A DNA stretch of 22,716 nt from the IMG/VR virus record IMGVR_UViG_3300033121_002248; one strand, written 5' to 3'. The notes below the pieces were generated by a model that saw nothing but the letters and a program-made list of their open reading frames with translations, searched no databases and was not told where the DNA came from. How positions within the stretch are numbered: position 1 is the first letter of the stretch; every line of letters starts with the position of its first letter. A program made the position numbers and the translations under genes. Of this stretch, positions 12,782 through 13,535 are shown piece by piece. The stretch comes from a virus.

Positions 12782-12787
12782 GTCACC

Positions 12788-12810
12788 GGAGCGCGCCCGC
12801 GGCGCTCCCT
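12788..12810. terminator. GC-rich hairpin GGAGCGC-gcccgcg-GCGCTCC between convergent genes, a putative bidirectional terminator
   Basis: Perfect 7-bp stem. The + gene ends at 12781 and the - gene ends at 12811. Followed by CTTT. Confidence 0.4.
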
Positions 12811-13005
12811 TTAGCCTCGCACGACCTGCCGCTGGGGCGTGTCGGTGGGCGTGTCCTCGACCTTCTCCTCGATCGGGGGCTTGCCGCCGTTGGCGCTTCG
12901 CAGGCGCTGGGTCAGGAGTGAGGTTCGGGGGTCATCTGCACGGCGGAACCGCTCCGTCGCCTCCCCGGCGATCGCCTCGCCGACCAGGGCGCGCATGCGG
13001 GTCAT
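12811..13005 (-). CDS. small hypothetical protein (64 aa)
   Basis: ATG at 13003-13005 (revcomp) lies 7 nt after a GGAGG on the - strand. Directly downstream of the 13027..13467 gene. Confidence 0.45.
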   Translation of the reverse strand: MTRMRALVGEAIAGEATERFRRADDPRTSLLTQRLRSANGGKPPIEEKVEDTPTDTPQRQVVRG

Positions 13006-13026
13006 TGGCAGCCTCCGTGCACCGGC

Positions 13027-13467
13027 TCAGGGGGTTCCGACTTGATGGGACTCGCTGCTGCTTCCGGTGTGGGGCAGCAGGCGGTCCGCGATGTAGGAGA
13101 CGCCGAGCACATTGAGCACAGCTACCACGATCCCGATCAAGAGGAGCTGGAAAGCGTTCGATGACCAGACACGTGTTGCCCACGCGTCCCGGTCCTTGCG
13201 CTGGTCCCGCTCGAACGTCAGGCGGTCTTCTTCTGTCTTGGCGATGCGCGTCAGGGCGGAAGCAGCCGCGGCTGCGGCGGCCGCAGCCGCGGTCACAGCC
13301 CCCGTGTTCTGGTCCGTCGACTTCTCGACCGCCTGCAGGCGGGCGTTCACCCTCTCGAGGAGGGTGGTGACCTCGAGCATCCACTCGTTGATCGGGTCTT
13401 GCTTCGTGTCGGACACGGGCGCCTCTTCAATCGCCCTGATGGTAACAGGGACGTAAGGCCACGACAT
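13027..13467 (-). CDS. C-terminally TM-anchored coiled-coil protein with an 11-residue poly-Ala tract (about 146 aa)
   Basis: Translation MSWPYVP...AVTAAAAAAAAAAASALT...AFQLLLIGIVVAVLNVLGVSYI. Noticeably more A/T-ending codons than the + strand genes. Alternative GTG start at 13476. Confidence 0.5.
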   Translation of the reverse strand: MSWPYVPVTIRAIEEAPVSDTKQDPINEWMLEVTTLLERVNARLQAVEKSTDQNTGAVTAAAAAAAAAASALTRIAKTEEDRLTFERDQRKDRDAWATRVWSSNAFQLLLIGIVVAVLNVLGVSYIADRLLPHTGSSSESHQVGTP

Positions 13468-13497
13468 CGTTCGCACCGCGCTTCTCGCTGGTGCACG

Positions 13498-13505
13498 GGC
13501 ATAAG
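13498..13505 (+). promoter_or_regulatory. GGCATAAG motif copy 5
   Basis: CACGGGCATAAGTCAGGTAGC lies 31 nt upstream of ATG 13536. It also sits in the divergent region upstream of the - strand cassette. Confidence 0.45.
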
Positions 13506-13535
13506 TCAGGTAGCACCAGGAAGGGGACTTTCATC

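Follow-up and report, generated by a model that had tools for sequence, protein, structure and literature searches.

Two minus-strand genes in a 22,716-nt stretch of viral DNA (IMGVR_UViG_3300033121_002248; the whole stretch analysed is called the window below) form a conserved opposite-strand operon, and the larger of them codes for a protein of an uncharacterised phage family, seen only in metagenomes and made up of predicted tail-anchored membrane proteins. The operon is old and shows no recent import. We give a probability of roughly one in two to the reading that this 129-aa protein is a holin-like lysis protein with an inverted, tail-anchored topology, accompanied by a small cytoplasmic partner.

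The opposite-strand cassette and its flanks

A GC3-based gene call of the first 19.7 kb of the window identified genes 12811-13005 and 13027-13416 as the only ones on the minus strand. The public gene calls agree, which bears out what an earlier note, made from the sequence, had said of this region. The upstream gene (13027-13416, minus strand) has a GTG start and encodes the 129-aa protein, a predicted tail-anchored membrane protein. Its open reading frame extends to a further GTG at 13476, which would give 149 aa; the GTG at 13416 was preferred, in line with the public call and with where the homologues begin. The motif GAAGAGG (13422-13428) is the likely ribosome-binding site of this gene. 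The downstream gene (12811-13005, minus strand) starts at an ATG with GGAGG 7 nt upstream and encodes a soluble product of 64 aa.

At the downstream end of the cassette, a convergent gap of 29 nt contains a GC-rich hairpin (12788-12808) with a stem of 7 bp (GGAGCGC/GCGCTCC) and a loop of 7 nt. The earlier note had proposed a bidirectional hairpin terminator at 12788-12810. The hairpin itself is present, but it has no T-run, it was not called by a terminator scan of the window and its stability is not unusual (z = -1.07); being palindromic, it could also end minus-strand transcripts. It represents one copy of a recurring plus-strand module, in which a hairpin is followed by TTAGCC and of which further copies are found at 3821-3854, 5954-6001, 15425-15456, 18155-18239 and 19288-19312. 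In the copy next to the cassette, TTAGCC lies at 12811-12816 on the plus strand, and its TTA doubles as the minus-strand TAA stop of the 64-aa gene. TTAGCS sites of the window are all (6/6) on the plus strand, in intergenic gaps just past hairpins.

The divergent region at the other end (13417-13535, 119 bp) had been described as a promoter region. A sigma-70 promoter scan of these 119 bp detected no canonical promoter, although each strand carries a conserved motif. On the minus strand, TGTTACCAT (13439-13447), an extended -10-like element of the form TGnTAnnnT located 22 nt upstream of the GTG start, may serve as the cassette promoter. The exact sequence TGTTAYCAT occurs at the equivalent place in three relatives (L015, L016 and L017), and its place is held by GGTTACCAT in L010 and by GGTTACCCT in L002. 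On the plus strand, the promoter-like motif GCATAAG (13499-13505) precedes the PolX-thumb gene (ATG at 13536) and is kept at the equivalent place in relatives; it would putatively restart plus-strand expression. SCATAAG is found 7 times in the window for 0.62 expected, each copy being on the plus strand ahead of genes of that strand, and no shuffled sequence out of 100 reached 7 occurrences.

Conservation and codon composition

In every related viral contig of 115-188 kb that was recovered, the cassette occupies the equivalent position on the opposite strand, its small downstream gene included (loci L002, L005 and L009-L017), these loci being a small sample found mostly through the cassette itself. 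Among these related genomes are two UViGs retrieved through the flanking gene of ~494 aa, and these too have it at the same place. The 129-aa protein shares 52-90% identity with its homologues in these large relatives. Its gene is under purifying selection (dN/dS = 0.10-0.21) and shows a dS resembling that of PolX-thumb, the gene next to it. A small gene, of 54+ to 88 aa, directly follows the large one in all seven related loci examined for it, and its start usually overlaps or abuts the stop of the large gene (ATGA, GTGA, TGATG); compared with close relatives, the dN/dS of the 64-aa gene is 0.23-0.27. The earlier note had interpreted the cassette as a moron-like insertion, to be checked by its presence or absence in related genomes. 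Contrary to that interpretation, homologous cassettes are conserved in the same position and orientation in all the related genomes recovered, and a recent acquisition is not supported.

Deviant codon usage had been put forward in favour of the same interpretation, and this proved true of one gene of the pair. The 129-aa gene has a GC3 of 0.836 versus 0.949 for the other genes of the window (binomial p = 2e-6), and both its GC3 and its CAI (0.523) are the lowest among 43 genes, whereas the 64-aa gene (GC3 = 0.889) is not distinct from the others. Since another gene, at 9500-9778, is close behind (GC3 0.846, CAI 0.548), the 129-aa gene appears as the tail of a codon-usage continuum. In eight of eight loci its GC3 was ~0.84, with a background going from 0.86 to 0.95, and in relatives the large gene of the cassette is not deviant (p = 0.09-0.22). 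The gene deviates in the window only because the background of this lineage rose to 0.95 while its own GC3 stayed at ~0.84; it lags behind a rising background rather than being foreign.

A predicted tail-anchored membrane protein and its putative small partner

The 129-aa protein is the only strong transmembrane protein within the 22.7-kb window, and its hydrophobic segment at residues 91-109 (KD19 = 2.57) is by a wide margin the strongest one. The hydrophobicity peak places the region coding for the transmembrane (TM) helix (residues ~88-110, AFQLLLIGIVVAVLNVLGVSYIA) at 13087-13155 on the minus strand. The N-terminal part of ~85 aa is charged, helical, heptad-patterned and predicted to be cytoplasmic, while the C-terminal tail of 19 aa is weakly charged, ends in Pro and is predicted to be outside. 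This arrangement, with a single TM helix near the C-terminus and the bulk of the protein N-terminal to it, is that of a predicted tail-anchored protein, as the earlier note had anticipated. The positive charges N-terminal of the TM helix (RKDRDAWATRVW) point to an N-in/C-out topology. AlphaFold2 modelled the protein as one long helix (residues 8-85 and 87-113, pLDDT 73), in agreement with the N-terminal helical region noticed previously. A Foldseek search of the PDB with this model gave no match, which says little for a single long helix, and the protein matched no entry in NCBIfam; neither it nor the other members of its family had a significant match in Pfam, the PHROGs families or the PDB.

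Residues 8-35 show a clear heptad register (I9, M13, V16, L20, V23, L27, V30). The heptad score of the 129-aa protein alone is not significant (62/500 shuffles); among the 56 family members, 28 beat 95% of shuffles. Further along, a run of 10 Ala codons (13261-13290, minus strand; residues 43-52), and not of 11 as first counted, is embedded in an Ala/Ser/Thr-rich helical stretch, which in homologues is also Ala-rich but has no pure run. A perfect palindrome of 13+13 nt (13266-13292) in the same place was considered as a regulatory hairpin and rejected: synonymous-codon shuffles fold equally well (14/60) and the palindrome is not kept in relatives, so that it is a by-product of the GCN repeats.

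The 64-aa protein comprises a conserved, predicted-helical N-terminal region of ~40 aa (M-x-R-x-x-x-L...RFR...RLR) and a variable Pro/acidic tail, and matched nothing in Pfam, PHROG or NCBIfam.

The protein family and its contexts in small phages

At 50% identity, the family of the 129-aa protein counts 53 representatives (E<=1e-3), all of 107-181 aa. The 56 members analysed share one architecture, consisting of an N-terminal part of 79-139 aa, one TM helix and a C-terminal tail of 8-41 aa. Only four positions are at least 90% conserved across these members, and they include Q90 and G105; in the 10 closest members Q90, G95, L101, G105 and S107 are invariant. Such conservation of Q90 and G105 inside the membrane helix would be unexpected for a passive anchor. 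Megablast and tblastn searches with the locus, the 129-aa protein, three distant members and the ~494-aa flank found the family absent from cultured phages, and it is likewise absent from 185,579 bacterial species genomes. Matches of the GyrB protein to known phages were distant and uninformative. A metagenome scan for further contexts returned only an already-known contig and a degenerate DNA pattern search gave no match. One candidate domain fusion, P0074 (221 aa), combines a protease-like N-terminus (DCDAHGT by eye) with the C-terminal half of the family; it was set aside as a probable assembly chimera, being encoded on a 1.2-kb contig.

In unrelated phage contigs of ~15-31 kb, which represent two or three lineages, the family member ends the tail/lysis block. 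In L025, L026 and L028 no other clear transmembrane protein is encoded within 8-12 kb, and the family gene is followed by an overlapping gene for a soluble product of 55-64 aa. In L021 and L028/L029 the family gene begins where an Amidase_3 endolysin gene (Pfam 5.7e-11 and 9.1e-11) reaches its stop codon, these loci forming the one small-phage lineage in which endolysin adjacency is confirmed. The protein upstream of the family member is fibre-like in L026; in L025 it was tried as an amidase and rejected, with a weak pairwise match (E = 0.039) and nothing in Pfam, PHROGs, NCBIfam or the PDB. Homology between the small partners of the large and the small phages was also rejected: their motifs look alike by eye, but two-way HMM searches do not rank the expected partners above random ORFs, and we claim a positional analogy only.

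A possible role in lysis

The endolysin of the window is a GH25 enzyme (19787-20461; Pfam Glyco_hydro_25 2.4e-26, PHROG endolysin 1.2e-29), encoded by the only other minus-strand gene. A hydrophobicity scan of the window found no membrane protein adjoining this gene, which confirms the earlier remark that the GH25 lysozyme has no adjacent holin. The cassette is 6.4 kb away, among replication/repair genes. The GH25 gene holds the slot that a VanY/PG-binding endolysin occupies in relatives, and the distance between the cassette and a VanY+PG_binding endolysin in the large relatives is 0.7-2.1 kb. A lysis-timing role, mentioned as a secondary possibility in the earlier note, gains some support from the distant homologues encoded directly after the Amidase_3 endolysin. 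If the cassette is lysis-related, GH25 is its presumed enzymatic partner.

With 129 aa and at least one TM helix (residues 91-109), the protein has the size and membrane segment of a holin. It showed no significant similarity to described holin families, PHROG holin matches being weak as well as sporadic (2-3/56 members, E 0.0015-0.009). The highly charged, hydrophilic C-terminal cytoplasmic tail of holins is absent, the charged domain of the 129-aa protein being N-terminal. In addition, early expression, to which a promoter of the host type would be suited, is uncommon for a holin and counts against a role in lysis.

We infer topology, oligomerisation, hole formation, partner interaction and own-promoter transcription as follows. 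The C-terminal helix would carry the 129-aa protein into the cytoplasmic membrane, leaving the N-terminus inside and the short tail outside. The protein would oligomerise through its heptad-patterned, Ala-rich cytoplasmic helix; the conserved polar and small residues of the TM segment (Q90, G95, N/Q102, G105, S107) may also contribute to oligomerisation. It could then act as a holin-like hole-former or as a regulator of lysis timing, thereby giving a signal-less endolysin (GH25 in the window, and in relatives VanY or Amidase_3) access to the wall. As a cytoplasmic partner or regulator, the 64-aa protein would bind the N-terminal helix, by analogy with the T4 antiholin RIII, and transcription of the cassette from its own host-type extended -10 promoter would give it separate timing. 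More speculatively, the family might consist of holins or lysis-timing proteins of a new topological class, N-in with a C-terminal helix, inserted post-translationally and gated by a small cytoplasmic partner translated together with them. An own opposite-strand host-type promoter would, in the large phages, uncouple lysis timing from the main-strand programme, and the conserved C-terminal Pro-stop could tune termination/re-initiation and hence the ratio of the two proteins. We hold this extended proposal to be possible but doubtful.

Comparison with known membrane proteins

In the T4 class III holin T, the cytoplasmic N-terminus is short and the large domain is the C-terminal, periplasmic one; the antiholin RIII is a cytoplasmic protein that binds the N-terminus of T. 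Like T, the 129-aa protein is small, has a single TM helix, a predicted cytoplasmic N-terminus and an association with a signal-less endolysin; the 64-aa protein, like RIII, is a small soluble protein that could bind the cytoplasmic domain. In contrast to T, with which there is no sequence similarity, the large domain of the 129-aa family is cytoplasmic and the outside tail has 8-41 aa.

Single-TMD lysis proteins of actinophages have an N-out/C-in topology, an N-terminal helix and no coiled coil (PMC9671378). Neighbouring lysis-regulator genes in actinobacteriophage cassettes are described as typically sharing ATGA overlaps, and genes for lysis regulators can also lie a long way from that for the endolysin (bioRxiv 10.64898/2026.08.27.747656). 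The family described here resembles the LysF1b / D29 LysA2b type by its single TM helix with ~50-115 aa of cytoplasmic domain and only a very short stretch outside, by a frequent 4-bp ATGA overlap with the next gene, by being encodable away from the endolysin and by its presumably high-GC hosts. It differs from this type by a reversed chain polarity, the helix being C-terminal and the N-terminal domain heptad-patterned, by the lack of sequence similarity to any GenBank phage, and by the next gene, which here encodes a soluble product and not a second membrane protein.

Tail-anchored proteins of the bacterial inner membrane are represented by ElaB/YqjD (DUF883). The 129-aa protein shares with them a size of ~100-130 aa, a helical cytoplasmic N-terminal domain, a C-terminal TM helix and the absence of a signal peptide, but it has no Pfam match to DUF883 and is phage-encoded and endolysin-linked. 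Its Ala-rich heptad-patterned helix also recalls the trimeric alanine-zipper coiled coils of the Lpp type. Lpp chains were its best PDB profile matches, which are weak, not significant (E = 0.011-0.016) and reflect composition; Lpp is a secreted lipoprotein, whereas the 129-aa protein is predicted to be tail-anchored.

Alternative explanations

The two ORFs could have arisen by chance in a GC-rich intergenic stretch, or could mask a true gene on the plus strand, since long ORFs arise in every frame of high-GC DNA, the ORF list shows several overlapping ones at the locus and the GC3 signal is weaker there than elsewhere in the window. Ribosome-binding sites nevertheless precede both genes, the AT skew changes sign across the cassette as it does at the other minus-strand gene of the window, and the public gene calls coincide with ours. 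The existence of 53 family representatives and a dN/dS of 0.10-0.27 across both genes effectively refute this explanation, to which we leave a negligible probability: the cassette consists of two real genes. These genes may still belong to a horizontally acquired moron or accessory unit, coding for a membrane-targeted superinfection-exclusion, defence or anti-defence factor that is not needed for lysis and is expressed early or constitutively from a host-type promoter. Like phage morons, the cassette lies on the opposite strand, exactly between the terminator-like module of the main strand and the next promoter-like motif, and has the lowest GC3 and CAI of the window. It also possesses a conserved extended -10-like element of its own, different from the main-strand SCATAAG, and the conserved TGTTAYCAT upstream and the hairpin downstream would correspond to the own promoter and terminator of a moron, neither being called by consensus scans. 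In the relative L005, all the predicted membrane proteins in 20 kb are on the opposite strand, suggesting that membrane proteins may be regulated as a class apart. Unlike morons, the cassette is not variably present: it keeps its position and orientation in all the related genomes recovered, at 52-90% identity and including the two found through the ~494-aa flank. It diverges in step with its flanks, as indicated by a dS like that of the PolX-thumb gene, and its GC3 is ordinary in relatives (p = 0.09-0.22) and close to 0.84 across lineages. The 0 copies in 185,579 bacterial species genomes provide no evidence of prophage expression, and in small phages the distant members belong to main-strand tail/lysis blocks. 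We thus consider a moron function unlikely.

Still less probable, in our opinion, is a role in anchoring or organising phage DNA replication, repair or some other process inside the cell, comparable to that of phi29 p16.7, by which the helical cytoplasmic domain would bring phage proteins or DNA to the membrane. A long cytoplasmic helix joined to a membrane anchor would suit this function, as would the neighbours of the cassette in the large phages (genes for SSB, GIY-YIG, PolX-thumb, ExoIII and GyrB). In small phages, however, the family members follow tail and endolysin genes and not replication genes, no DNA-binding or other domain is detectable in the 129-aa protein, and the conserved polar and Gly positions of the membrane helix argue for more than anchoring.

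Significance

A low GC3 and a location on the opposite strand are insufficient for calling a moron, as the GC3 of the gene remained constant and the surrounding genome shifted. Holins are already extremely diverse. If the 129-aa protein does act in lysis, it would add a tail-anchored class of inverted topology to the membrane proteins of phage lysis. It would also provide a candidate holin for uncultivated high-GC phages of 115-188 kb, whose GH25 and VanY endolysins are otherwise without a partner.

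Genomic setting and products of the minus-strand gene pair

Ahead of 19.7 kb, the only minus-strand genes of the window form a two-gene cassette, as the earlier note had proposed and as both our gene call and the public call confirmed: a large gene (13027-13416, 129 aa) followed by a small one (12811-13005, 64 aa). The AT skew reverses sign both here and at the other minus-strand gene, which fits minus-strand coding. An alternative GTG start at 13476 would give a large product of 149 aa; the GTG at 13416, preceded by GAAGAGG, is favoured by the N-termini of homologues and by the public gene call. 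A single C-terminal membrane helix, as read from the sequence, is also predicted here for the 129-aa protein: its hydrophobic stretch at residues 91-109 has a hydrophobicity score (KD19) of 2.57, far above every other segment of the window. Besides it, just one protein, a candidate membrane protein of 120 aa (2585-2947, plus strand) with an N-terminal hydrophobic stretch and without family match, barely attains 1.68. The alanine run is also real, with a length of 10 (residues 43-52) instead of the 11 first counted. Structure prediction gave a long helix (8-85) and a second helix (87-113), with a pLDDT of 73.

The window, at 69% G+C, is crowded with short genes, of which almost every one lies on the plus (main) strand. 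SSB and GIY-YIG products are recognised by public calls on the source contig, and domain matches, several with agreeing PHROG matches, identified a thumb-only PolX-like protein, an ExoIII-type nuclease, an 865-aa MVP-shoulder/SPFH protein, a GH25 lysozyme and GyrB. The identical sequence is present on a Logan contig of 23,994 bp. Its relatives, viral contigs from IMG/VR, span 115-188 kb, and no GenBank phage resembles the cassette locus; the window is therefore part of a large, uncultivated high-GC phage. The PolX-thumb protein (13536-14072, plus strand, 178 aa) matches the DNA polymerase beta thumb domain only, and its gene was found in the closest relatives only (L015, L017); two genes beyond lies the ExoIII/AP-endonuclease-family gene (14326-15126, plus strand), and together the two products look like a base-excision-repair pair. 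On the other side, the conserved flanking protein (10750-12231, plus strand; 493-495 aa in alignment A8) contains three tandem (S/T)LDxxDSAL(S/T)RL repeats, a region weakly resembling Mrr_cat (E = 0.0037) and a weak match to helicases, and has no counterpart among GenBank phages.

The 129-aa protein defines a family

When 1.84 billion representatives were searched with the family profile, 53 proteins, each of 107-181 aa, reached E<=1e-3. The 56 aligned members share an N-terminal part of 79-139 aa, one transmembrane helix and a C-terminal tail of 8-41 aa, and half of them (28/56) show a heptad periodicity stronger than that of 95% of shuffles. Conserved motifs are WM.EVT, AVEKS.D and RIAKAEE.R in the helix and R..W..R.W.S...QLL..G.V...L(N/Q).LG at the membrane segment; Q90 and G105, both within the membrane helix, belong to just four positions that are at least 90% conserved. 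No significant match for the family was obtained in Pfam, PHROG, NCBIfam or PDB, Foldseek with the predicted structure returned none, and no member occurred in 50,697 GenBank phage records or 185,579 species genomes. By these comparisons, the protein falls into none of the described families. Proline is the last residue in 40/56 members (alignment A3). Family genes often end in CCR-TGA, with which the following gene overlaps through its RTG start; the large gene of the window also ends in Pro-TGA (13027-13032), though 21 nt separate it from the small gene. Such an ending might tune translational coupling through slow termination, or protect an outside tail. In the 221-aa protein P0074, on a 1,176-bp contig, the C-terminal half of the family is preceded by an N-terminus that by eye resembles a protease (DCDAHGT motif); an assembly chimera is more probable here than a true domain fusion.

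The cassette is conserved among large relatives

The earlier note had read the cassette as a moron-like insertion, with a pattern typical of horizontal acquisition. Ten close homologues of the 129-aa protein (52-100% identity) were found, in every readable contig on the strand opposite to their neighbours, with the same protein of about 494 aa (327 aa in one lineage) on one side and either the PolX-thumb gene or a small-protein/ExoIII/.../GyrB block on the other. A small gene directly follows the large one in 7/7 related loci examined for it, including loci where the public gene caller had overlooked it, and its start mostly overlaps or abuts the large-gene stop (ATGA, GTGA, TGATG). Because retrieval of these loci mostly went through the cassette, a source of sampling bias, IMG/VR was searched independently with the alignment of the flanking 494-aa protein; only two viral genomes were recovered, both with the cassette. 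With position and orientation thus shared by the related loci recovered, a moron-like insertion is unsupported.

Deviant codon usage held for the large gene in the window, where its GC3 is 0.836 vs 0.949 for the remaining genes (binomial p = 2e-6) and its CAI of 0.523 is the lowest among 43 genes, but not for the 64-aa gene (GC3 0.889, unremarkable), nor in the relatives (p = 0.09-0.22). Gene 9500-9778 is nearly as low (GC3 0.846, CAI 0.548). A/T-ending codons of the large gene concentrate in the Ala-rich stretch, the K-T-E-E motif and near the membrane helix. Its GC3 is 0.81-0.87 in all eight loci compared (window, L002, L005, L010, L013, L015, L016, L017), against a background of 0.86-0.88 in relatives and 0.95 in the window; the apparent deviance is thus due to a genomic GC3 rise that the gene did not follow. 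The large gene has dN/dS values of 0.10-0.21, the small gene of 0.23-0.27, and dS to the closest relative was 0.68 (0.48 for the adjacent PolX-thumb gene), a divergence that supports long residence. Taken with the conserved place and the GC3 pattern, this marks the cassette as an old, fixed part of the phage lineage.

The product of the MVP-like gene (15557-18154, plus strand, 865 aa) combines an SPFH/Band 7 domain with a Major Vault Protein shoulder domain (1.7e-20). With a GC3 of 0.992 the gene shares first place in the window, and few genes have a higher CAI. Together with the next three genes (141, 197 and 149 aa, with an SNase-like product for the third), it is absent at the syntenic position in L005, L009 and L016. 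The variable insertion of the region is this block, not the cassette.

Putative transcription signals around the cassette

The main strand carries a recurrent module, a GC-rich hairpin followed by TTAGCC, whose six copies are all in plus-strand orientation and lie between genes (TTAGCS after hairpins at 3849, 5996, 12811, 15451, 18234 and 19307). What had been called a bidirectional terminator is one copy of it: the hairpin is present (12788-12808, 7-bp stem), without exceptional stability (z = -1.07) or a T-run. SCATAAG lies upstream of plus-strand genes at seven plus-strand sites (2938, 3857, 5571, 6005, 13499, 14067 and 15480) vs 0.62 expected, a number attained in 0/100 shuffles; TCATAAG adds two (18247, 20495), and (G/C/T)CATAAG is conserved among relatives. 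As it is not a TANNNT -10, CATAAG may be a phage-specific promoter or processing site. From GCATAAG at 13499-13505, plus-strand expression would resume with the next gene, and with the hairpin-TTAGCC module on the other side, the cassette fills a main-strand gap flanked by putative terminator and promoter signals.

Upstream of the cassette start, TGTTACCAT (13439-13447) reads as an extended -10 (TGnTAnnnT), exact in L015, L016 and L017 and near-exact in L010 and L002; the similar GCTACGGT stands ahead of the GH25 gene. Total occurrences of such patterns do not exceed chance expectation. Two promoter classes, and separate timing with them, are therefore only inferred. In L005, a 164-kb relative, all four predicted membrane/signal-sequence proteins in 20 kb (651-881, 881-1117, 2394-2663, 10001-10429) lie on the strand opposite to most genes, each with a TAC..T-like element shortly upstream. 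Membrane proteins may have their own class of opposite-strand units.

Association with endolysins and possible function

Distant family members were found on viral contigs that are unrelated to the window and about 15-31 kb long. In L021 and L028/L029, the family gene begins right at the stop codon of a gene encoding a 180-aa Amidase_3 endolysin, itself preceded by a Gly-rich fibre-like protein. The member also terminates a similar block in L025 and L026, where it is the sole clear membrane protein in 12 kb and the upstream protein is, respectively, faintly amidase-like at most and fibre-like. An overlapping gene for a soluble protein of 55-64 aa follows in L025, L026 and L028, after which coding changes strand. 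The large relatives encode a VanY/M15 peptidase with a PG-binding domain on the main strand, 0.7-2.1 kb from the cassette (L005 7593-8363, L010 284-1063, L016 1010-1768). The corresponding slot in the window holds the GH25 endolysin (19787-20461, minus strand), in reverse orientation beside a 72-aa gene and GyrB, 6.4 kb away because of extra genes including the MVP-like gene. The endolysin at this slot has been swapped for a non-orthologous enzyme.

The stop-codon junction with Amidase_3 and the nearby VanY endolysin strengthen the earlier suggestion of a role in lysis timing. A membrane factor with an accessory or exclusion role and a promoter of its own, to which the -10-like motif would be relevant, is an unlikely alternative, and a membrane organiser for replication is less probable still; what remains is left to an explanation not so far imagined. 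Holins are notoriously diverse. In actinophage lysis cassettes, 4-bp ATGA overlaps are typical between adjacent lysis-regulator genes, and lysis regulators may be encoded at a distance from the endolysin (bioRxiv 10.64898/2026.08.27.747656). The 1-TMD lysis proteins described so far have an N-out/C-in topology and no coiled coils (PMC9671378); the present family is their mirror image. We give a probability of about 0.5 to the 129-aa protein being a holin-like or lysis-timing membrane protein of inverted, tail-anchored topology, acting with a small cytoplasmic partner.
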